Of a stretch of 53,295 bases of DNA, positions 1 to 52,012 are shown piece by piece. A program made the position numbers and the translations under genes. A model generated the notes under the pieces. It worked only from the letters and a program-made list of their open reading frames with translations. It had not been told where the DNA came from and did no database searches. The stretch is from Scenedesmus sp. PABB004 (Eukaryota), in contig JABVCE010000053.1 of the NCBI GenBank assembly GCA_014905635.1, positions 1 to 53,295 on the forward strand, given 5' to 3'. Position 1 is the stretch's first letter; every line of letters starts with the position of its first letter.

Positions 1-8970
<8,970 letters not shown>

Positions 8971-31907: not shown

Positions 31908-33043
31908 ATGGCCGAGCCGTTCACGGCCGTGGGCTGGGGCGCGATGGCAGACCCGGCGGCGAAGCCCGGTGCGGCGAGCTGGGAGCGCCGCATGCATGGC
32001 GCCGCCGCCGCTGCGCACCCGCTGCTGCTGCGCCCGCTCCTGCCGCCTGCTGTGCGCACGTGCATTCAGCCGTGACTGGCACGTCAGCGCCGACCCGCAG
32101 CCGCCCACTCCCGCCGCACCCGCCGCCCACCCGCCGCACCCGCCGCTGCTCGCGCGCCCGAGCAGGCGGCGCGCTGCCGCCGGACGTGATCCAGGCCTTC
32201 CTGCAGGCGCGCGCCGGCTCGGACGACGCGGACGCCGCCGGGCCGCGCGCGCTGGCGAGCGCGTCAACCGTGGAGGGCGACGCCGCGGCGCTGGCGTCGC
32301 TCAGCCGCAGCAGCAGCAGCCACCTGCACGAGGCGCCGCTGGTCAACCCGTTTGCGGCGCCCGGCGGCGGCGCCGACATCGGCGCGCGCCTGCCGCAGCA
32401 GCAGCTGCTGCGGGCGGCGCAGCCGTCGCCCGCGCCGCCGCCGCGGCGGCCGCGCAGGTCGCTCGCGGCGCGCCTGCTGCGAGGGCTGGCGATCGCCGGC
32501 GCGGCGTCGGGGCTGGTCGCCGCGGGCGCGTGGGCGGGCACGACCGCGTACCGCCGCTATGTCGCGTCCCTGGACGACCGCGAGCAGCTCGCCCGGCGCG
32601 TCGCCGAGCTCGCCAGGCAGGAGGAGCGGCTCGTGCTGCGCTGCACGGCGCTGGAGCAGGAGCGCGCGGGGCTGACGGACGCGCTCGCGGCGGAGCGCGC
32701 GGCGGGCGCGGACGGCGCCGCGGCGCGGCGCGCGCTGCAGTCGCAGCTGTCTGCGGCGCGCGCGGAGCGCGAGCAGGTGGTCGGGCTGAACCTCAAGCTT
32801 CAGGCGCGCCTGGCGGCGCTCGAGGAGGCGCACGCCGCGCTCGGCGCCGCCCTGAAGGACGCGCAGGCGGAGCGCGACGCGGCGCGCGCGGACGCGGCGC
32901 GCCTCGGCCGCGAGGCTGCGGCCGCTGCGGCGGCGGGCGAGCGGCTTGAGGCGCGCGCCGCGGCGGCCGAGGCGGCGCGCGCCGAGGCGGCGGAGGAGGC
33001 CGCAGCAGCGCGTAAGGCGGCGCGCGCGGCGGCGCACGCGTGA
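31908..33043 (+). CDS. Single-pass membrane protein with C-terminal coiled coil, unknown function
   Basis: Exon 1 31908-31968 (MAEPFTAVGWGAMADPAAKP), phase-1 GT-AG intron 31969-32165, exon 2 in frame. Hydrophobic segment LLRGLAIAGAASGLVAAGAWAGTTAY followed by about 150 aa of E/R/A/L heptads. Confidence 0.75.
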
Positions 33044-33064: not shown

Positions 33065-33574
33065 GGCTGCGCGCACTGCAACAGGCGTCCTGCGATGGCC
33101 CGGGGCGCGCTTCGGCGCGGGAGTCCGCCCGCCCGCCGGTGGTGCTCTGGCCGACAGCGGCTGCTGGGGGCGTGCCGCGGGGTTTGTCGTGGTCGGGGAC
33201 GCGTGTGGGGCTTCCAGGGCGGCGGGCGGGTCCCGGGGGGGCCGTGCGCGTGGGCCCTGGTATCGCGCGCGTCACGTCAAGCGGCGCCACTCTCAACCCA
33301 GGCCTCGGAGCCATGCTTGCAGGGCCCCAAAAGTCAGCCCGACGCGGGACTGGGCTCACGCCGCGCGCCCGGCTGCCGCGGCGGCGCGGTCGCGATGATG
33401 GTCGTCTGCCGTGGCGGGCCCGCTGACCGCGCCCGCCCCGGCTCCGCCGCCCCCGCCGGGCGCGCCGCTCGGCGTTGGGGCAGCCAGGCAGGAGGCCCCA
33501 ACACCAGCCGGCGCCGGGCGGCGGGCGGGGCGCGGGCGGCCGGGCGGCGGACGGCGGCGCGGCCGGCGGCGCGG
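33065..33574 (+). repeat. Left arm of a ~510-bp near-perfect inverted repeat
   Basis: Reverse complement of 37295-37805. In the segments compared by eye I found one difference, a 1-bp indel in a G-run near 33238/37631. Weaker similarity continues inward to ~33621. Confidence 0.97.
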
Positions 33575-34107
33575 GGCGGCGGGCGGCGGCAGGGCTCAGG
33601 TCCGCGACGCCGACGCGGCGGTCCGACGGAGCTGGGCGTCGCCAGCGTCGGCCCGACGCGTCAACGCCGGAAAGAGCTCGCACGTGGGACCTCGGCAGCA
33701 GTGGCCGCCACCTCCCGGCCAGCCCGGCCCCGTCCGATCGCGCGAGTTCGCTCTCCACGCGCTCCAACGCCCATGAGGCTTCACAGCTTGACGCGCCGCT
33801 GCGCAGGCCGCGGCAGCAGCGCGTAGGCCGCGGCAGCAGCATGCGGCAGTCACTTGCTGCCTGATCGGCCATGCCGCGACCTACCGCGCGCCGGCAGTGG
33901 TGAGGGGGACCCGCGTGTGCCGCAGCTGGGCCGGCAGCGCGCCCCGCGGCGCTCGCTCGCAGACACAGCTCCGCCGCTGCTGCCGCCGCCGCTGCTGCTG
34001 CCGCTCCCCGCCCGGCAGGCGCACCGGCCTGGCCGGCCAGCGGCGGCGCAGGGGCCGCTGCTGAGCCGCCGCCGGTGGTGGCGGCGCCGGCCCCAAAGCT
34101 GGCCGCG

Positions 34108-36508
34108 ATGCTGCTGGGCTGCGCCGGCGGCGGCGCCGGCGGCGGCGGCGTCGCCAACGGCGGCGCGCTGCCGCGCGGCGCGCCGGGGCGCGCGTTTGCG
34201 CTGCCCGTCGACGCGGAGGGCAAGGCGTGCGTGCTGCCGCTCTGCAGCGCCGTGCGGCCGCACATGCGCGCGTTCCACGTCGGCTGGGCTGCGTTCTTCG
34301 CGAGCTTCGCCGCGACGTTTGCGCCCGCGGCGCTGCTGCCGGTGCTGGCCGACGCGCTCGAGCTGACCGCGACGGACGTCGGCAACGCCGGCATTGCGAG
34401 CATGTGCGGCGCGATCGGCGCGCGGCTGGCGATCGGCACGGCGGTCGACGCGTGGGGGCCGCGCGCGGGCGGCGCGATCGCGCTGCTCGGGACGTCGCCG
34501 TTTGCGTTTGGCATGGCCCTCGTGTCCGGGCCGCGCAGTTTCGTGTGCCTGCGCATGCTCGTGGGGCTGAGCCTCTCCATGTTCGTGGTCAACCAGTTCT
34601 GGGCGACCCAGATGTTCAACACGCGCCTGCTCGGCACCGCCAACGCGCTCTCCGCGGGTGCGGCGGCGCGGCGCGGCGGCGCGACGGCGCGGTCCGCGCG
34701 CCCTGGCGCGAGGGCTGGCGTGAGGGCTGGCGCGCGGGCGCGCGCGGCGCCGCCGCCCAGTCGCCGCGCCGCGCGCCCGCCGCGCCGCGCCAGGCTGGGG
34801 CAACATGGGCGCCGGCGCGACGCTGCTGCTGATGCCGCTGCTGTTCGAGGGCTTTGCCCGCGTCGTCGCGCCGGGGCTCGCGTGGCGGCTGGCCTTCCTC
34901 GTGCCCGGCCTGCTCCAGCTGGTCATGGGTGCCATGGTGCTACTCGCAGCGGACGACTGCCCCGCGGGCGCGTGGCCCCGCATGCACCGGTGCGGGCGCC
35001 GCAGCTGAGCTGGCGCCGGCGCCGCCGGGCCGCCGCGGCCGCCGCGCCGCGCGCCGCCGCCAACGCCGCGACCGCCGCGCCCGCCCGCGCGCCGCGCCGC
35101 CGCGACCGCCGCCGCCCGCAGCGCGGCGGGCGCGCCGCGCGCGCGCCGCGCGTGCTGCGCGCCGTGGTGGTCGGCGGCGGCCAACTACCGCACGTACGGC
35201 CTCGCGCTCGCGTACGCGCTGTGCTTTGGCGTCGAGCTGACCACCCACAACGTGGCCACGCTCTACCTCTACCAGCACTTTGGCCTCTCCCTCACCTCCG
35301 CGGGCCTGCTCGGTGCGGCCAGCGCCAGCGGCAGCGGGCGCAAGCAAGCGGCAAGCCGCGCCCTGCGGCGGCCGCGGGCGCGGGCCTGCGCCCACGCGCG
35401 TGCGCCCGCGCCAACGCGCCGCGCCCGCGTGCTGCGCCCGCGTGCGGCAGGCGGGTGCCTGGGCCTCATGAACCTGGGCTCCCGCTTCCTCGGCGGCCGC
35501 GGCAGCGACGCGGCGGCGCGGCTGCACGGCATGCGCGGCCGGCTGTGGGTGCTGCAGGCGCTGCTCATGGTCGAGGGCGGCGCCTGCCTGCTGGTCGGCA
35601 TGAGCCACGAGAGCCTGGCCGCCACGGTGCGACGCACGCGCGCGGCATGCGCGGGCGCCGCCACCCCGAGGGCCGGCCAGGCCGCCCACGCCGCCGCGCC
35701 CCGCCGCCGGACCCCCCCCCCCCCCCCATACACACACACACATACAGCTGGGGATGCTCTTTGTGTTCAGCTTTGCCTGCCAGGTGGCGTGCGGGGCGGT
35801 GTTTGGCATCGTGCCCTTTGTCAGCCGCCGCTCGACGGGCGCCGTCACGGGCATCGTCGCCGCCGGCGGCAGCCTCGGCTCCGCCGTCACCCAGGCGCGC
35901 CGCCGCGGCGACGGCGCCTGGTCGGGCCGCGCGCGCCCGCCGCGCCGCCGCCGCGCTGCGGCCGCGCCGCGGGACACCCGGGCGGCAGCAGCCCCGCGCC
36001 CCGCCCTGAACCCCGGCACGTCCGCCCCTGAACCCTGAACCCTACAACCCCAGGCCCTGTTCTTTGGCTACGCCGATTTCACGCCCTACGAGGGGTTCTA
36101 CTGGATGGGCACCGCCGTCATCTGCCTCGGCGCCGCCGTCGCGCTGCTGCACTGGCCCATGTGCGCCGCGCCGCCGACGCCGCCGCCGCCGCCGACGCCG
36201 CCGCCGCCGCCGCGCTGCGCGGCCCCCGCGCCGCCGCAGCCCGCGGCACGCGCCCGCCGCGTGACGCGTCACGCCGCCGCCGCCGCCGCCCCACCCCGCG
36301 CCGCCGCGCCGGCGCAGGTGGGGCGGGCTGTTCTGCGGGCCCTCGCCCGGCGCGAGCGAGGAGCGGTACTATCTGTCAGAGTACTCCCCCGCCGAGCGCG
36401 TCGCGGGGCTGCACCTCCCCGCGCTCGGCTTTGCGCACGAGGCGCGCAGCGAGCGCCCGCCGCCGGGCTGCTGCGGCCCGCCCTGCGGCGGCGGCCTGCG
36501 CGCGCTGT

Positions 36509-36539
<31 letters not shown>

Positions 36540-36813
36540 CGGCGTGCAGGAGCCGTCGCTCGGCAGCACGCACAGCGCGCGCGGGCTGCTGGGCAGCGCG
36601 CTGCAGCTCGCGTCGCCGGGGGAGCCGCGCCTGCCGCCCGCGGACGGCGGCGCGGCCGCCCGCGGCGGCAGCCCGGATGGCGCGGAGCCGCGCCTGCCCC
36701 CCGCGGACGGCGGTGCGCCTGCGCTGCCGCCGCCGGGCAGCCTGTACGCGTCGACGTACTCCGGCCGGCACCCGTTTGCGCTGCCGCTGCACCAGCCGGG
36801 CCGCGGCGCGTGA
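34108..36813 (+). CDS. NRT2: High-affinity nitrate/nitrite transporter, NRT2 (NNP/MFS) family, 7 exons
   Basis: FALPVDAEGKA...RPHMRAFHVGW, GAIGARL (TM2 Arg), DAWGPR, NQFWATQMF, nitrate signature ANALSA|GWGNMGAG, NYRTY..YALCFGVELT, MNLGSRFLGG (TM8 Arg), GMRGRLW, GAVFGIVPFVSRRSTG, HWPM|WGGLFCGP, YYLSEYSPAE..GLH. Stop 36811-36813. Confidence 0.95.
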
Positions 36814-37166
36814 GCGCGCGCGCCGGCGGCGCGCGGGCTGCATGCATTTTCGCCCGCGGCGCGCGGGCTGCGCGCATTCTGCCCGCGGCGCGCCGCGCGG
36901 CCCGGCACTCCCTCGCGACGGTGATGGTTCGCGCCTGCCCGTGCGCATGAGCCAGCGCGGGCGGCGCAGCACGACACACAGGGAAGAAGAAGAGAGCTGC
37001 GATTTGAGCACTGAACACGGTGTGTGTGTGCCCTCCTGATCAGGCGCTCGCATGGGGCGCCTACGCGCCCCTCTGTCGGTGGTCGGTGTGGTTTTGTGGT
37101 TTCAGCAGTCGCGCCGCGGCCAGCGGCCCGGACCACTGGGCTGATTGTTTACCTTCGCCGGCAGGC

Positions 37167-37171
37167 TGTAA
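37167..37171 (+). terminator. TGTAA polyadenylation signal of NRT2 (putative)
   Basis: Chlorophyte poly(A) motif TGTAA about 350 bp after the NRT2 stop, just before the right inverted-repeat arm. Confidence 0.55.
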
Positions 37172-37294
37172 CGGCCGCCGCGTCGGCCTCGCGCACCTGC
37201 CCTGCCGCCGCGCGGCCTCGCGACCTGAGCCCTGCCGCGGCCGCCCCCCCCCCCCCCCCCGTCCCCCCTCCCCCCCCCCCCCCCCCCCCCCCCG

Positions 37295-37805
37295 CCGCGC
37301 CGCCGGCCGCGCCGCCGTCCGCCGCCCGGCCGCCCGCGCCCCGCCCGCCGCCCGGCGCCGGCTGGTGTTGGGGCCTCCTGCCTGGCTGCCCCAACGCCGA
37401 GCGGCGCGCCCGGCGGGGGCGGCGGAGCCGGGGCGGGCGCGGTCAGCGGGCCCGCCACGGCAGACGACCATCATCGCGACCGCGCCGCCGCGGCAGCCGG
37501 GCGCGCGGCGTGAGCCCAGTCCCGCGTCGGGCTGACTTTTGGGGCCCTGCAAGCATGGCTCCGAGGCCTGGGTTGAGAGTGGCGCCGCTTGACGTGACGC
37601 GCGCGATACCAGGGCCCACGCGCACGGCCCGCCCCGGGACCCGCCCGCCGCCCTGGAAGCCCCACACGCGTCCCCGACCACGACAAACCCCGCGGCACGC
37701 CCCCAGCAGCCGCTGTCGGCCAGAGCACCACCGGCGGGCGGGCGGACTCCCGCGCCGAAGCGCGCCCCGGGCCATCGCAGGACGCCTGTTGCAGTGCGCG
37801 CAGCC
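37295..37805 (-). repeat. Right arm of the ~510-bp inverted repeat
   Basis: Reverse complement of 33065-33574. Preceded by a ~50-bp poly-C tract (37244-37293) and further patchy similarity down to ~37175. Confidence 0.97.
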
Positions 37806-38185: not shown

Positions 38186-40543
38186 ATGTGGAAGGGCCTG
38201 CGCAGGGCCCTGGCCAAGTCGCGCAAGGGCCCGGCCGCGGAGCAGCGCGCGCCGGACACCTCGCATCGGTCCACGGCCTCCTCGGCGGCGCCCAGCAGCG
38301 TGCTCTTCCCGCTGGACGTCGCGGACGTGGACGCGCTCGCGGGCTGGAATGAGCAGCAGCAGGCGCAGCGCGGCGAGCCCGCGGCGGCGCAGCGGCAGCC
38401 GGCGCAGCACGCAGCGCCGGCGCAGCCGCAGCCGCGCGGCGTGCCGCCGCTCCCCTCGGAGCAGGCCCGCGCGGCGCCGCTGAGCGGCACGGCGCTGCAG
38501 GCGCAGCTGCAGCAGTCGGCGGCGCTGCAGGCGCTCGTGGCGGCGGGCGCGGACGACGCGTCGGCGCCCAAGCGCCAGGCGGCGGCGGTGCAGAAGCGCA
38601 TCGACAGCGCGATGCTCAACCCCGGCACCACGCTCTACCAGATCAGCAGCCTGCTCTCGCTCTCGACGCTGTTCGAGCACAAGGTGCGCGCGCGCGGGGC
38701 AGGCGGGCGCGCGCGCGCGGGGCGGGTGGGCGCGCGCGGCGGGCAGCGCGGCGGGCAGGCCGGCGCGCGGCGGGCAGGCCGCCGACGCGCCGCGCGCCGC
38801 GCCCCGCGCCGCGCCCCGTGCCCGCAGCTCCAGCGCGACGCGATGACGGCGCTGGAGCAGGCGCCGGCGCTGGTCGCGCCGGCGGCCGCGGCCGCGGCCG
38901 ACGCAGCCGCGGCGCTGCCGTGCTGCTGCGAGCCCGGCGGCGCGCCGCCGCTCGGCAGCAGCGCCGGCAGCGGCTTGTGCGGCGGCGGCGGCGCCTGCGG
39001 CAGCTGCGGCGGGTCGCCGGCGCGCACGCCGAGCGCGACCGCGGCCGCGACCGCTGGCGTCGCGCTCGCGCTGGCGAGCTGGGGGTACCGCGTCATTGTG
39101 CGCAAGGTGCTGCACAGCAAGGCGTACTGGACTAAGGCCATGGACAACACCTTCATCGTCGCGCTCGACGCGAGCGGGGGCGGGCACGTAGAGTACGTGG
39201 TCGACCCGCACTTCCGGGAGACGTTCAACGTCGGCGTCGTGTCGCCGAGCTACGCGGCGGTCCTGGCCAGCCTCCCGGCCGTGTTTGTGGGCATGCCGTG
39301 CCAGCTGCAGCCGGTCGTGCAGCTGCTGTGCGAGGAGGTGGAGCTGAGCTTCCTCGAGGCGGGGCGCCCCTGCCCGCCCTGGCGCGAGTGGGGCGCGACC
39401 ATCAACCGGTGGATGAGCGACCAGTACGTCGACATCCTCGTCCCGCCCCCGGGCGCGCCGGCGGAGGAGGTGGCCGACTTTGTCGCGGCGTGCGCCGCGT
39501 ACGGCGGCGCGGCCGGCGGCCCCGGCAGCGCGCGCAGCAGCGGCAGCGCCAGCAGCGGCGGCGGCAGCCCCGGCTCGCGCCTCGCGAGCGGGCGGCCGAG
39601 CGAGCGCATGCACGTGAGCAGCGTGCTGAGCGCGGCGAGCACGTGCAGCCGGCGCGCGGTGCCGGAGCCGCTGCACAAGCAGCTCGGCTTTGCCGCGCAC
39701 GAGCAGCGCGGCGAGGAGGGCGCGTCGCCCGCGCCCCCGGAGCTGCGCAACGCGAGCTTCACGTCGCCCAGCAGCTCCGGCGCGTCGGCCGGGGCCAGCA
39801 GCGCGGCCGCCGCGGCGGCGGCGCTCGGCGGCGGGGCGCGCGCGCTCGGCTGCTCGCTGAGCGTGCCGGGCGCGGACCTGCTCAGCAGCAGCGCCGGCAG
39901 CAGCGCCGCGGGCGACGACGGGCTGGTGCGGACGCTGGAGCCCACCGCGCTGCAGCGGCACGAGGCGGCCATGCTGGCAGCGCAGCGGCAGGCAGCGCCG
40001 CAGATGGCGGCGCGGCAGCAGGCGCCGCCGGCGGCGTCGCGCTCGGGCTCCAGCAGCAGCGCCGTCAGCAGCAGCAGCAGCGGCGGTGGCGAGGGCCGCG
40101 TCGCGCCCCGCAGCCGGTCGCTGCTGACGGCGCACATGCAGCTGAAGGCCCAGCTGCAGGCGGCGCAGGCGCCAGCGCTGCAGCAGCAGCAGCAGCAGCC
40201 GCAGCACGTGCTCGCGTCGCAGCTGCTGCAGCAGCAGCACCTCGCGCAGCTGCAGCTGCAGCACCAGGCCACACTGCAGCAGCTGCTGCAGCAGCAGCAG
40301 CTCCGGCAGCAGCACGCGGCGCAGCAGCCGCTCCTGGCGCCGCTGCTGCCGGTGGTGCACACGGTGCGGCCGTGCGGCGCGCCAGTGGCCCTGCCGCAGC
40401 AGCAGCCGCAGCAGCCGCAGCAGCCGCAGCCGCAGCAGCAGCAGACCGGCTGGGGCGGTGGCGCGGCGCTGGCCGCAATGCAGGGCCCGCCTGGCCAGGA
40501 GCAGCAGCCGCGCCTGCTGCGGCTCATCCCCCGGCACCAGTGA
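38186..40543 (+). CDS. DUF506 (PD-(D/E)XK-like, plant/algal) protein with poly-Q C-terminus
   Basis: YVVDPHFRETFNV...YAAVLASLPAVFVG..QLQPVVQLLCEEVELSFLEAGRPCPPWR...RW matches the DUF506 core (LPxxFVG, PPWR). Probable in-frame 144-bp GT-AG intron 38684-38827. Stop 40541-40543. Confidence 0.85.
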   Translation: MWKGLRRALAKSRKGPAAEQRAPDTSHRSTASSAAPSSVLFPLDVADVDALAGWNEQQQAQRGEPAAAQRQPAQHAAPAQPQPRGVPPLPSEQARAAPLSGTALQAQLQQSAALQALVAAGADDASAPKRQAAAVQKRIDSAMLNPGTTLYQISSLLSLSTLFEHKVRARGAGGRARAGRVGARGGQRGGQAGARRAGRRRAARRAPRRAPCPQLQRDAMTALEQAPALVAPAAAAAADAAAALPCCCEPGGAPPLGSSAGSGLCGGGGACGSCGGSPARTPSATAAATAGVALALASWGYRVIVRKVLHSKAYWTKAMDNTFIVALDASGGGHVEYVVDPHFRETFNVGVVSPSYAAVLASLPAVFVGMPCQLQPVVQLLCEEVELSFLEAGRPCPPWREWGATINRWMSDQYVDILVPPPGAPAEEVADFVAACAAYGGAAGGPGSARSSGSASSGGGSPGSRLASGRPSERMHVSSVLSAASTCSRRAVPEPLHKQLGFAAHEQRGEEGASPAPPELRNASFTSPSSSGASAGASSAAAAAAALGGGARALGCSLSVPGADLLSSSAGSSAAGDDGLVRTLEPTALQRHEAAMLAAQRQAAPQMAARQQAPPAASRSGSSSSAVSSSSSGGGEGRVAPRSRSLLTAHMQLKAQLQAAQAPALQQQQQQPQHVLASQLLQQQHLAQLQLQHQATLQQLLQQQQLRQQHAAQQPLLAPLLPVVHTVRPCGAPVALPQQQPQQPQQPQPQQQQTGWGGGAALAAMQGPPGQEQQPRLLRLIPRHQ

Positions 40544-41210
40544 GCAGCACTGGGCCGCGCGCGGCGGGCTGCCGCGTGGCAGAGGGCCCTCAGCCCTGCA
40601 CGGGGCTGGCGTGTACGACGGGGGGAAGGGCGCACAGTGGCTTTATCGTTGCTGGCGGCGAGGGGACTGCGGGACAGGGCCCCGGCTGGGTTCCCAGGCC
40701 CGCCGCGAATCAAGGGCCGCGCCGCCCGCGCCTGCGCCTGCGAAGTAACCCCACCCAGGGGTGTGCATTGCTGGCCACGCCGGCGTGCACGCGCGCTGGC
40801 GCGCGGCGCGGCGGGCGGTTGTGTGCGTGGGCGAGCCCGGGGGTTGTGTGTGTGTGTGTGTGCGGCAGCAACAGCGGGCGCGCCGGACGGTCCGCCGACC
40901 GGCGGCGCATGCCTTTGCCTACATAAGGAGGGAGCGCGGCGCACGCCGCGCTCCCTTCTAACCAACAACATCAACAACGCCGCCGCCAGGGGAGGGGGCG
41001 CGGCCGGTCAGGGCGTCCCTCGCCGCTGCGCCTGGCGAGCGGCGAGGTCGGTGCGGGGGGCAGGGTCGGGTCGGGCGTGGAAGGGGGCGGGCGGGGGGTG
41101 GGGCTGTGATCGGTCTGGCCAATCTGTCGCTGGCGTGGCGCGCCCCCCCCCCCCCCCCCCCCCCCCCGCGGCGCGTTTTTGCCGCACCTTTGAGCGGCCG
41201 CCGCGGTTGC

Positions 41211-41240
41211 ATCCGTATACGGATACGATACGTATCCGTA
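41211..41240. repeat. Overlapping palindromes in an AT-richer intergenic island
   Basis: atccgtatacggat (41211-41224) is a perfect 14-bp palindrome. tacggatacg-ata-cgtatccgta (41218-41240) is a 10-bp stem with a 3-nt loop. Confidence 0.9.
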
Positions 41241-42644
41241 GGTTGATACCGACTTCAGCCTCACTGGCCAAGATTGAGGCGGCGGCGCCCGGGCCGCCCG
41301 ACGGCCCGAGCCGAGCCCCGCGCGCGCGCGCCCGCGCGCGCGCGCGCCCAGGCGGCGGCGCCGCGCCGTTGATGTGTCACTGCGCTGCAGCTTTTGTAGC
41401 TGCGCACGTGCGGCGCACCAACTTCTGGGGGGTGGAAGCGAGCGAGCGACCATTGGGCGGCGGCGGACCGACGGTCCGCCGGCCGCGCGAGGACCGCACA
41501 GTGCATGCATCGCATCGTGCCGGGGGCAGGACTTGATTCACACGAGCACACGAGCACCCCTGCTGCTGCTGGGGCGAACCGCGGGCGCGGCGGGAGGCGC
41601 GCGACGCGTCGTGCCCCCGCCGCGCCCGCGCGCGGGCCGGGCCCTCTTGCCTCTCTGCCTCTTGCCTCTCTCTGAATGCCGGCCGCTGCCAAACCGCAGC
41701 GACGGCGACGCACTGCTGGCGTGACATGACTGCGCTGACGCCGCGCGCCGCGTGGCGCCCGCTGAGCCGGGACGCGAGGGAGGGAGGGAGGGGGTCTCTC
41801 TGGGGTCGCGTGTTGTGGCGGCGTGCTTGTCTGCACCGCCCGAGCGGTGCCAAGCAAGCGGTGCCAAGCTCGGCCGCTTGCTTGCTGTGTTTGGCTCCAG
41901 GCCTGCCGCTGTCGCTCGGCGGCTGCGGCCGGCGTGTTGGGCGGCGGCGGCGGTTGTTAGCGCCGTCGTCGTCGGCGTGCGCCCCCTGCCTGCGCCGCGC
42001 GCGGTGGTGTGTTGTGCGCCGTCGTCGTCGGGCGTCGCGGGACGTGTGTTCGTGTAGATCCGTTGCTTGCTGCTGCTGGCCTGTCGGTGGTGCGCTGAGC
42101 CGCCACGATCACTGCCCAAGAGCGAGCGCCCCTGGACGGGCGCTATCTGACTCCCCTGCCCAACGGGGCGTTGTAATGGTGAGTGTGCGTGACCCACCCT
42201 CAGCTCAGCAAGCAAGCCACGGCCGCAGCACGCGTCAGCGAGCGGCGCTCGACGCCTCCGTGCAGCGCCGCCGAGCCCAGTGCCAGCCCCCCGGCGCGAC
42301 GCGGCGGCCGCGACGGCTTGCCCCGAGCTGCAGGCGCGGCCAGCGGGCACGGCGCGGGCTCGGCGAGCGCGATCAGCGGGCTGGCGATCGCGCCTAGGTC
42401 GTCGCGTGCCCCTGGCGCGACCGCGGTGCAGCAAGCTCCCGCAGGCGCTGGGCCGGCGTGGCCAGCGGCGGCGCGATGAGGGGAGCCGCAGAGGGGGCGC
42501 GCGGCCAAGGCGCGCGGCCGGGGTGCAGCGCGCTACGCCGCGGGTCGACGTGCCTTCGGCGTGGCGCCGCTCGCGTGGCGACAGCCACTCGCGTGATCAC
42601 GTTACGCCAGCAGCACGCGCGCACGCACGCGCACGCAGCACACC

Positions 42645-44482
42645 ATGGGCGCGGCGTTCAGCCTGGTGCGGGGGAGGCCCGTCCGCGGCCACGCGGCGGC
42701 GCGGCGGGCCGGCCGGCCCGACGCGACGCCGTGGGTGCCGGCGCGCGGCCGGCGCGCCGCTCTGCGCGGGCGGGCAAACTGCTGGGCGCGCCCCGCCTCA
42801 CCGCGCCGTCGCGCCGCGCCGCGCGCAGCTGGGTGCGGTGGCCCTGCCCCTGGGCAGCGGCTTCGCGGTGGGCCTGGCCACGCAGCACGACATCAAGGGC
42901 TGGTGCGCGCATGCGCAGCGCAGCCCGGCCCTCGCACGGCGCGCCCGCGCGCCGGGCGGGCGCCGCTTGCCGCCAGATCGCTGCTGCGTCCCCGATCGCA
43001 GGTATGGCGGCCTCAAGAAGCCCAGCTGGAACCCGCCCGTGAGCGGCGGCGCACCGGCGCAGCAGCAGCGCCGCTGCAGCGCGCGGCCCGCGCGCATGCA
43101 CACCGCGGCGCCGCGCCCGGGCCGCTGCGCGCCCGCGGCGCAGCCCGGCGTGGCCGTGACGCAGCGACGCGCGCCCCGACCGCCGCCCGGAGGGCCGCGA
43201 GCTCAGCCGCCCGCGCCGCCGCCGCCCCGCCGCCGCCGCCGCGCGCGCCGCCGCCCCCTCGGACCCTCGCCGCAGAACTGGATCTTCGCGCCCGCCTGGT
43301 CCGTCTTCTACACCAGCATGGGCCTGGCCAGCTGGTTCGTGATCCGGCAAAGTGAGCGCGCCGCGCCGCCCGCGCCGCTGCACCCGCCCGCGCACGCCTT
43401 CCCGCGCCGCCCGCGCCCGCGCGCGCCCGCGCGCCCGCGCGCCGCGCCGCCCCCGCCCACGGCCGCGCCGCCGCCCGCTTTCCCGCGCGCAGAGGACGGT
43501 CGGCGGGTGCCGCTCGCACTGTACGCTGCGCAGCTCGCGCTCAACCTGGCCTGGACGCCGCTGTTCTTCAAGCAGCACGCGCTCGACCTCGCGCTCGCCG
43601 ACAGCGTGGGTGCGTGGCGCGCACGCCTCGGCGCACGCGCGTGCACAGCAGCGCAGCGCAGCGCGCGACCAGCGCAGCGCGTGCGCGCTGGGCGCGGGCT
43701 GAGCCCGGGGGCGCCGGCGCGCGCGCGCCGAACGCCGCCGCGCGCCGCGTGCGCCGCGCGCGCGCAGCGCTGCTGGGCGTCGCGGCGGCGGCGTCGGCCA
43801 AGATGGCCAAGGAGCGCCCGGGCGTGGTGTGGCCGCTGATGGGGCCCTACCTCTGCTGGGTCACCTTTGCGACGGCGCTCAACGCCGAGATCCTGCGCCT
43901 CAACCCCAGCGTGAGGGGGGTTTAGGGAGGGGGTTTTGGGGGGTGCTGCCGGGGGGAGAGGGCGGGGGAAGGGGCTGGCGCTGGGGGCCCGGCGCGGGGG
44001 CCGACGCACGCCGCGCCGCCGCCCCCGGACGTCACGCAGGAGACTGCGATCGACTACAGCAAGCTGCAGAAGAGCGCCAAGGACACCGCCGACAAGGCCG
44101 CCGCGCGGGCCAAGGAGGACACCGCCAAGGTCAAGGCCGCCGCCAAGGACGCGGCCGACAAGACCGCCGCCGCGGCCAAGGACGCGGCAGACCGCGCGGC
44201 GGCCAAGGCCAAGGAGGCCGGTGCGTGCCGCGCCCGGCGCGCGGGAGGGGCGGGGCTTGCGCGTGTGTCCGCACGCCCGGCGCCGCCCGCGCGCCGACGC
44301 CTGCCGCGCCCGCCCCACCGCCGGCCGCAGGCGACGCCGCGGCGGCCAAGGCCAAGGAGGCGGCCGCCGCGGTCGCGGACGCGGCGGCGGAGGTGGCCGA
44401 GAAGGCCAAGCACGACGCCGCCGAGCTGGCGGCGGTGGTCAAGGACGGCGTGGCCGGCAGCGCGCCCGCGCCCGCGCAGTGA
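42645..44482 (+). CDS. TSPO: TspO/MBR translocator protein with C-terminal LEA-like 11-mer repeat extension, 8 exons
   Basis: Spliced MGAAFSL|LGAVALPLGSGFAVG...W|YGGLKKPSWNPP|NWIFAPAWSVFYTSMGLASW...LALYAAQLALNLAWTPLFF...LMGPYLCWVTFATALNAEILRLNPS (TSPO signatures). Two further exons 44040-44220 and 44331-44482 encode A/K/D/E repeats. Confidence 0.93.
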
Positions 44483-44970: not shown

Positions 44971-50004
<5,034 letters not shown>

Positions 50005-50659: not shown

Positions 50660-52012
50660 CTACTGGCCCACGGCGCGGGTGTAGATCTTCTGGCTGCCGT
50701 GCTCCGCGATGGGCTTGATGAGCCCCTTCTCGAGCAGCTCCCGGATCGCGGCGCGCGCGAGGGAGCCGTTGAGGCGCAGGCGGTCGCTGAGGATGGAGGC
50801 GGTGATCATCTTGTACTTGGGCACCTCGGCGTGGAGCTTGTCGTAGGTCGCCTGGTCAAAGAGGACCAGGTTGTTGACCTTCTCCTTCATCTTGCCCTTG
50901 CTCCACTTCTTCTTCTTGCCCTGGGGGGGGGGGGGGGGGGGGGGAGGGATGGGAGCGGATGGGAGCGGATGGGGCGGGCGGGCACGGGGTCAGGGGGGGG
51001 GGGGCAGGGGGCGCCGCGCGGAGGCGAGGGCGGCGCGCGCGCGCGCGCGCGAGACGGCCGCCGCCGCCGCGGCCGCTGATGCTGCCGCTGCCGTGCGCGG
51101 CTGCCCCGTGTCGCCGCCGCCGCTGCCGTCGCTGCCACGCGCAGCTGCCGCTGCCGGCACCGCGGTCGGACGCCGCCGCTGCCGCCGCTGTCGCTCCCGC
51201 CGCTGCCGCGCCGCTGCCGCCACCGCGGTCGGACGCCGCCGCCGCTGGTGGTCGCAGCGCAGGCGCTCACGCCAGGCGCTCCCGCTGCCCGCCGTGCTCG
51301 CGACCGCTGCCCCCGCCGCTGCCGCTGTCGTCGCTGGCGCTGCCCGCCGCTGCCGCTGCCCGCCAACGCCGCGGCCGCCGCCGCCGGCGAGGCTCGCCCG
51401 CCGCCGCTCGCTGCGCCGGCTGCGCAAGGCAAGCCGGCCGTGCGCCCCTGATCTACACACACAGCCTCCACGCACCTTGCTGGAGTTGGCGGCCGCGAGG
51501 GCCTTCGCCTCCTTGCTCTGCGGGGGCGCAGCAGCGGCGGCGGTGGCCGCGTGAGCGGCGCCGGCGCGGGCGCAGCAGGAAGCCGCATGCGGCCGCCGGG
51601 CGCGTGCCCGCGGCCCTCACGACGCTGCCCCGCCAACGCGGCCGCCCGGCGGTCCCCCGGGCCCGCCGCGCGCCGAGGGCGGGTGGCTGCGGCCATCGCG
51701 GCGCTGGTGCGCCCCCGCCAGGCCGCTGCCGGGTGCGCGCTGCGGCCGGGGACGGCTGATCCGGGCGCTGCGTCCCAGGGCGCGCCCCGCCAGGCCGCCG
51801 CCGGCGCTCGGCTGAGACCGGGCGCCGGGGGCCCTCGATGCGCCGCGCCCGCCGCTGCTGCGCGCCGGGCGGCTGCCCGGACGAGCCGGCCTGGCACTGC
51901 CCGGCCACCGCCGGGCTCCGGGGGCCCACGCCGCGCCCTGCTGCCGCCCGGCCGCCAGGCGCCCGCCCCCGCCCCGACGGCGCGGGCGCACCTTCTGCTC
52001 CTTGGGCGCCAT
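50660..52012 (-). CDS. RPS25: 40S ribosomal protein S25 (eS25), 3 exons
   Basis: Exons 52012-51992 MAPKEQK, 51517-51476 [14 protein letters not shown], 50920-50660 [29 protein letters not shown]...[19 protein letters not shown]...QKIYTRA. All introns GT-AG, phase 0. Confidence 0.98.

Follow-up and report, generated by a model that had tools for sequence, protein, structure and literature searches.

Inverted duplications at the ends of a DNA segment have been described in several systems. In Drosophila, staggered breaks have left inverted copies of non-repetitive DNA at 17 of 29 inversions (Ranz et al. 2007, PMC1885836). These duplications have a median length of 321 bp, ranging from 46 bp to ~1.9 kb, and often just one of the breakpoints is duplicated (PMC1885836). 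A copy-and-paste class of rearrangements termed 'local two-jump', in which a duplication is linked by inverted junctions, has been proposed to arise by template switching (Li et al. 2020, PMC7025897). The arms of spaced palindromes can be kept identical by conversion, and for palindrome P6 of the human Y chromosome the ratio of conversion to inversion is given as 56 to 3 (PMC3723533). Here, we describe two inverted arms that enclose an NRT2-type nitrate transporter gene in the green alga Scenedesmus sp. PABB004. The analysed window is the whole 53,295-base contig JABVCE010000053.1 with a GC content of ~80%. The arms are probably the product of a local inverted duplication of host DNA, generated by a staggered-break inversion or by a template switch at a G-tract, that is either recent or homogenised by conversion.

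The locus shares with the Drosophila staggered-break scars the presence of apparently non-repetitive host DNA, inverted, on both sides of a segment as well as a similar size of the duplicate (PMC1885836). In the Drosophila cases, however, the inversions are large, comparison with outgroups has proven them, and the copies are ~88% identical (PMC1885836), whereas the Scenedesmus segment comprises one gene (3.7 kb), the core of its arms is 100% identical and an inversion is a proposed one. Like the local two-jump class, it can be read as a nearby template copied in inverted orientation via two junctions, but that class comes from human tumour genomes with read support and the Scenedesmus structure from one assembled contig (PMC7025897). 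P6 resembles it in having inverted arms, a unique spacer and near-total identity. In contrast to the arms of P6, which measure ~100 kb and are conserved across apes, those described here measure 0.5 kb and are known from one contig (PMC3723533). The type of structure itself is well known and the locus is probably not a new system. Among the matches listed, a literature search by title and start of abstract, with subscription papers and supplements outside its coverage, found neither an algal NRT2 between inverted repeats nor a green-algal nuclear gene for nutrient use described as invertible. Most likely, the locus represents a clean and recent inverted duplication on the scale of a single gene, beside a G-tract in an algal genome of 80% GC. 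It could be used to measure the rates of conversion and inversion in a small nuclear inverted repeat, and it would carry greater weight if both orientations existed with differing NRT2 expression.

A preliminary description of this DNA had recognised the arms as reverse complements with one indel, and alignment of both arms confirmed this as well as the coordinates. Two exact blocks constitute the pair: positions 33065-33238 (174 nt) are the reverse complement of 37632-37805, and positions 33239-33574 (336 nt) that of 37295-37630. The core alignment contains 510/510 identical bases without any substitution, and the single difference is an extra C at 37631 opposite a run of seven G residues in the left arm. 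Zero substitutions in 508 nt correspond to an arm divergence of <0.6% at 95%. The remark in the preliminary description that near-identity implies recent origin or homogenisation is among its readings that fit best. The arms lie 3.7 kb apart and indeed enclose about 530 bp of upstream DNA (533 nt from the left core to the ATG), all seven NRT2 exons and a TGTAA at 37167. Self-BLAST of the window (E 1e-8) returned no further pair beyond two ArsA modules, a 55-nt palindrome and one low-complexity match; there was no third copy of the arm within these 53 kb and no head-to-tail copy of the tandem, pseudo-LTR (long terminal repeat) kind. Homology extending outward past the arms was rejected because 76 of 400 random pairs score equally well. 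Consistent with the earlier observation that a clear target-site duplication (TSD) is missing, none of 8-11 nt with up to two mismatches was present at the unit ends (±3 nt), and none of at least 5 nt around either single arm. The flanks of the arm ends merely contain GC dinucleotide repeats of 4-6 nt.

Inward of the cores, the homology resumes, a feature that had been overlooked in the preliminary description. Behind a gap of 11 nt on the left and 56 nt on the right, where the gap holds a poly-C tract, 36 nt can be aligned, of which 16 nt are exact and followed by two gaps and one mismatch. The local score of 63 is the top value among all window tiles and was matched by 4 of 4965 random window pairs. 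Thus, the duplicated unit measures about 555-600 bp. Inner similarity deeper than this tail was rejected, as 910 of 976 nulls score as high. Differences are rare in the core (1/510) compared with the tail (3/36; Fisher p 0.001), a contrast that a recent origin combined with errors near the poly-G run explains too. Core identity of the right arm stops 1 nt from the poly-C tract. Since a distance of no more than 5 nt to the end of such a run applies to just 0.4% of the window positions (p ~0.016 for any of the four junctions), the tract probably acted as either the initiating lesion or a barrier to later conversion.

The arm resembles neither a gene nor a structured RNA. Its codon score is negative in all six frames under a model that scores control exons positive. 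A 243-codon open reading frame (ORF) starting at 33095 in the left arm was rejected, because its codon score is negative and the extra C shifts the reading frame in the right copy. Folding gave a z value of −0.04, on which ground the arm was also rejected as a structured RNA. At the gathering threshold, no Rfam family was found in the window, the one chance-level match (E 0.62) being located inside NRT2 exon 1, and the window contained no tRNA. The arm had no blastn match to plasmids, and its motifs had no match in metagenome contigs (23 nt) or viral contigs (18 nt). No terminal inverted repeats (TIRs) occur within a single arm, no hammerhead pattern or Helitron-type end fitted, the Crypton target CAYCG is absent from the junctions, and neither CACTA nor Crypton end motifs were located there.

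Instead, the left arm contains, near its outer end, a candidate polyadenylation (poly(A)) signal of the upstream coiled-coil gene. In Chlamydomonas, UGUAA is the dominant poly(A) signal and UGCAA, at 6.42%, its commonest single-base variant (PMC6413133). The TGCAACA at 33077 is the sole TG[CT]AA on the plus strand between 33044 and 37166. Within the window, TG[CT]AA occurs up to 400 nt past 7 of 12 gene ends, a frequency to be compared with 10% for windows placed at random (binomial p 6e-5; 0 of 2000 shuffles). Of these seven motifs, six read TGYAAC[AG]. The 12 gene ends were picked by hand from codon-score segments, with a kinase gene, a RuvB fragment, a gene at ~5.6-8.7 kb and the last gene excluded. 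With five TGCAA and two TGTAA at these ends, the genome seemingly uses TGCAAC as often as or oftener than TGTAAC. As the arm is non-coding and unstructured and holds the one candidate poly(A) signal that the coiled-coil gene has, the left arm appears to be the terminator of this gene plus the following spacer, i.e. host DNA, and the right arm its copy.

We propose that a single break-repair or replication event duplicated this stretch in inverted orientation. The source would comprise the 3′ end of the coiled-coil gene, its poly(A) signal and the spacer behind it, and the copy would have been placed 3.7 kb away between NRT2 and a DUF506 gene. Both the mechanism and the assignment of the left arm as the original are inferred. 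By one route, to which we give a little less than an even chance, a staggered break across the stretch would have inverted NRT2 in place. By the other, rated a little above even, a template switch at the poly-G tract would have pasted an inverted copy without turning NRT2. The two routes yield the same product and are indistinguishable in the present sequence. Identity of the core would then reflect a recent event or arm-to-arm gene conversion, and the length difference at the poly-G tract would block conversion of the tail. Directly observed features on which this explanation draws are the pair with its diverged tail, a junction located at the G-tract, the missing TSD, the non-coding nature of the arm and the conserved NRT2-DUF506 neighbourhood. 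Moreover, the unit size falls in the range of staggered-break duplications, and an inverted duplicate of what looks like non-element host DNA occupies both ends of the segment, with copies counted within the window only. Among the origins offered in the preliminary description, a scar of repair-derived inversion or duplication fits best.

Several points weigh against a local inverted duplication of the coiled-coil terminator. The poly(A) motif was chosen after TGCAA had been seen, the 12 gene ends are a manual selection, and a control on the opposite strand also matched at 4 of 12 ends, partly via convergent neighbours. The copy number of the arm is known from the 53-kb window alone. Accession order in the relatives shows adjacency of NRT2 and DUF506 only, not the orientation of NRT2. 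Differences in the tail, situated beside the poly-G tract, could be sequencing errors. Since the coiled-coil gene and NRT2 are not neighbours in T. obliquus, the interval left of NRT2 would itself be a product of rearrangement, and the arm could instead have originated on the DUF506 side. Finally, in one set of Chlamydomonas mutation-accumulation lines, 70.6% of inversions and translocations were linked to transposable elements (PMC9977147).

The gene neighbourhood suggests that NRT2 resides at its old locus. In three assemblies of Tetradesmus obliquus (WIA21146/21147, WIA41441/41442 and SZX72851/72852) and in Monoraphidium minutum (KAI8472868/KAI8472867, each on a 387,965-bp contig), the accession numbers of the two orthologues, NRT2 and DUF506, directly follow one another, which indicates adjacency on the assumption that accessions or locus tags, which do not give the strand, follow chromosome order. 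The protein pairs P0002/P0059 and P0004/P0026 represent this adjacency. In the NRT2 tree, for which two truncated models were trimmed, the NRT2 proteins of T. obliquus and M. minutum fall together with the Scenedesmus protein P0001 into one starred clade (7 of 20 rows, support 100/99); neighbour data cover this clade except four members. Because of the DUF506 adjacency in both species, there is no sign of mobilisation of NRT2. The coiled-coil orthologue of T. obliquus belongs to the same neighbourhood but lies beyond DUF506, separated by four loci in one haplotype and three in the other, which implies at least one reshuffling of this neighbourhood. Hence, from the order coiled-coil gene, NRT2 and DUF506 that the preliminary description had suggested comparing, the NRT2-DUF506 adjacency is conserved and the coiled-coil-NRT2 adjacency is not found in T. 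obliquus. The rearrangement that parted the coiled-coil gene from NRT2 was rejected as the origin of the arm pair, as its scar would not fall between NRT2 and DUF506. The C-terminus of the coiled-coil protein is not cut by the arm, and its homologues end at a similar place. As judged from these gene orders, a divergent NRT2 clade appears to have been kept beside DUF506 in Scenedesmus, Tetradesmus and Monoraphidium while nearby genes were shuffled, and the linkage may be functional. Pattern searches with the DUF506 alignment (A3) gave 594, 44 and 578 matches in metagenome, viral and prokaryote contigs, respectively, none of which was confirmed. A homologue search with a PHD gene returned one unplaced protein, and a literature search for the locus-tag prefix of T. 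obliquus gave no paper. Coordinates of all features are compiled in Table 1.

Table 1. Features of the NRT2 locus and its flanks (positions in the window)
Feature	Position	Strand	Remarks
Left arm core	33065..33574	+	Non-coding; starts 21 nt past the stop of the coiled-coil gene
Right arm core	37295..37805	-	Inverted copy of left core with one extra C at 37631
Left diverged tail	33586..33621	+	Aligns to 37205-37238
Right diverged tail	37205..37238	-	Inward continuation of right arm
Poly-C/poly-G tract, 50 nt (C17, short break, C24)	37244..37293	-	G-quadruplex-type motif on - strand
Candidate poly(A) signal TGCAACA of coiled-coil gene	33077..33083	+	Within left arm; putative function
Copy of poly(A) signal in right arm	37787-37793	-	Faces NRT2
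Unique NRT2 upstream region	33622..34107	+	Putative promoter and 5′ untranslated region; non-coding, no above-chance similarity to 3′ side
NRT2-type nitrate/nitrite major facilitator superfamily (MFS) transporter gene	34108..36813	+	7 exons, 620-aa open frame
NRT2 exons	34108-34657, 34794-34989, 35122-35312, 35451-35626, 35748-35894, 36054-36160, 36318-36813	+	
Putative NRT2 poly(A) signal TGTAACG	37167..37173	+	354 nt past stop
Coiled-coil/transmembrane gene	31909..33043	+	Left flank, outside unit; homologues P0064, P0065
DUF506 (PF04720) gene	38189..40543	+	Right flank, outside unit; conserved NRT2 neighbour

It is unlikely, in our estimation, that the arm represents a non-autonomous dispersed element lacking both TIRs and TSD, of the Chlamys (Penelope-like), Crypton or Replitron type, which inserted twice or hopped locally and whose copies are alike owing to youth or conversion. 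Chlamys elements exist in Sphaeropleales, prefer (C)n or (CA)n targets and in many cases have no visible TSD, while 30-40-bp tails and inverted copies are described for related elements (PMC8557442). In Scenedesmus, one arm abuts poly-C and a 36-nt tail is present. In C. reinhardtii, two opposite Crypton copies flank an often-inverted region (PMC9977147), and the frequent association of rearrangements with transposable elements mentioned above points in the same direction. The absence of TIRs and of a clear TSD, the vicinity of poly-C and the opposite copies around a segment are thus shared with Chlamys and Crypton pairs, but these are multi-copy families with pseudo-LTRs or CAYCG targets, neither of which the arm shows in this window (PMC8557442, PMC9977147). 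In contrast to Chlamys, poly-C adjoins the right core only, and the homology resumes beyond the poly-C in both copies, which independent insertions at different sites would not bring about. Furthermore, the arm harbours the only poly(A) motif of the neighbouring gene, at the 5′ end of the arm on that strand. Together with the lack of a pseudo-LTR, of a third copy in 53 kb and of CAYCG at the junctions, this argues against a dispersed element.

An assembly or polishing artefact, by which one arm was mis-inserted beside the poly-G tract, where sequencing often fails, seems quite improbable. The junction does coincide with a 50-nt G/C tract with ragged bases. On the other hand, the arms differ by one internal base, the tails are related but different, and just 16 nt of exact seed lie beyond the tract. 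Fold-back read chimeras produce adjacent palindromes, unlike the present arms, which are 3.7 kb apart and have unique sequence on all four sides.

Identical inverted arms raise the question of what an inversion between them would change. When the block was flipped in silico, 1043 nt upstream of the NRT2 ATG stayed the same apart from a 1-nt indel, or 869 nt up to the indel with an inner crossover, and the near ends of both flanking genes were unaltered. An inversion would therefore not swap promoters. Inversion by ordinary homologous recombination between the arms could occur rarely and would be near neutral, because the same promoter and terminators are rebuilt. We consider it very improbable that the second arm is kept by selection, with the poly(A) signals as insulators and with a block that toggles between two heritable levels of nitrate uptake. 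In such a scenario, the two poly(A) signals, which face inward and lie 13 nt from the block ends, may shield NRT2, in either orientation, from read-through of the coiled-coil gene and from antisense transcripts initiated at the DUF506 promoter, and the gene may alternate between a position downstream of a terminator and one back-to-back with the DUF506 promoter. If true, this would amount to a nuclear nutrient gene of a green alga that is invertible and insulated by terminators.

A programmed switch of the flip-flop kind, in which inversion between the arms would raise or lower NRT2 expression in the manner of the mating-type systems of Komagataella and Ogataea, is extremely improbable. The locus has in common with these yeasts a nuclear segment between inverted repeats that is invertible by homologous recombination, and in the yeasts nitrogen starvation acts as the trigger (PMC11764356). 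A stretch of 510 identical bp is a usable recombination substrate, and the near ends of the flanking genes are the same in both states. The yeast flip/flop, however, is characterised by a telomeric silencing position, genes inside the repeats and demonstrated switching, none of which is seen here; it acts by placing a gene beside a silencing telomere, whereas both flanks of the Scenedesmus segment are ordinary genes (PMC11764356). The upstream region preserved on a flip and the preponderance of conversion over inversion in P6 (PMC3723533) also speak against a switch. Pfam detected no transposase or recombinase in 213 stop-to-stop ORFs of at least 170 aa, in a scan that is weak for spliced genes and missed the NRT2 exons. 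The candidate invertible or mobilised cassette announced in the preliminary description was overstated: mobilisation is not supported in view of the DUF506 synteny and the missing TSD, and regulated inversion, also put forward there as an option, is weak in view of the unchanged promoter.

Capture and movement of the whole NRT2 gene by a long-TIR non-autonomous transposon (Pack-MULE or foldback-like, hallmarked by an 8-11-bp TSD), another option raised initially, deserves next to no credence and is already largely refuted: inverted ends that are long and nearly identical and that enclose a single intact gene but no transposase would suit it, but NRT2 stands beside DUF506 in two other genera and hence does not look like cargo moved from a donor locus, no TSD of 8-11 nt exists, and a host poly(A) motif lies within the arm. 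Such a capture and the programmed switch each fail a defining test. CACTA elements bear CACTA/G at their very ends and have a 3-bp TSD; a CACTG...CAGTG pair (33074/37796) was rejected as such an end, since the inverted identity runs 9 nt further out, and the flanks read GCG and CGC.

The gene between the arms appears, by its sequence, to be an intact member of the NRT2/NNP nitrate-nitrite porter family of the MFS, related over its length. Five of its introns are of the GT-AG type and one, intron 5, is GC-AG. The 620-aa translation contains no stop and is identical to the database protein P0001, for which the source gives the label NRT2.2 of Scenedesmus sp. PABB004. P0001 has PF07690 on record and is 68% identical to P0002 of T. 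obliquus. The match to TIGR00886 (E 2e-67) reaches 227.7 bits compared with a curated cut-off of 311.7 in a prokaryote-oriented library, and the orthologues P0002 and P0004 likewise stay under this cut-off. In the NRT2 alignment (A1), R106 is invariant and R324 nearly invariant; both residues presumably have a role in substrate binding. Intron 5 (35895-36053) contains telomere-like CCCTGAA repeats ahead of the acceptor, and similar repeats are found at 43915-43945 and 46050-46140.

Further observations concern other parts of the window. A 2.1-kb non-coding gap (40544-42645) extends from the DUF506 stop to the ATG of a TspO gene and is either a long 3′ untranslated region or an insertion that has escaped recognition. 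It contains a C25 run (41143), and its first TGTAA lies at 42172. In the source model P0023 (1013 aa), DUF506 and TspO are joined across this gap, probably in error, because an in-frame TGA ends DUF506 at 40543. On the minus strand at 3440-4480, a RuvB-like (TIP49) gene whose ATG lies near 4477 appears to break off after ~70 codons, where it meets the garbled 3′ end of a plus-strand kinase gene. This site may be a further junction of recent rearrangement or a partial duplicate. The palindrome mentioned above, an imperfect one of 55 nt, overlaps a 33-nt tandem repeat in non-coding DNA at 5427-5514. Two tandem ArsA/GET3 ATPase modules with 71-84% DNA identity occupy 44971-50000 on the minus strand. 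There is no clear poly(A) motif between them, and they likely form one two-domain gene, which we take to be comparable to ARSA1 of Chlamydomonas. A ribosomal protein S25-like gene on the same strand (50924-51988) has two introns of ~0.5 kb, 3-4 times the size of the NRT2 introns, one of which contains GCC-type repeats and poly-G runs.

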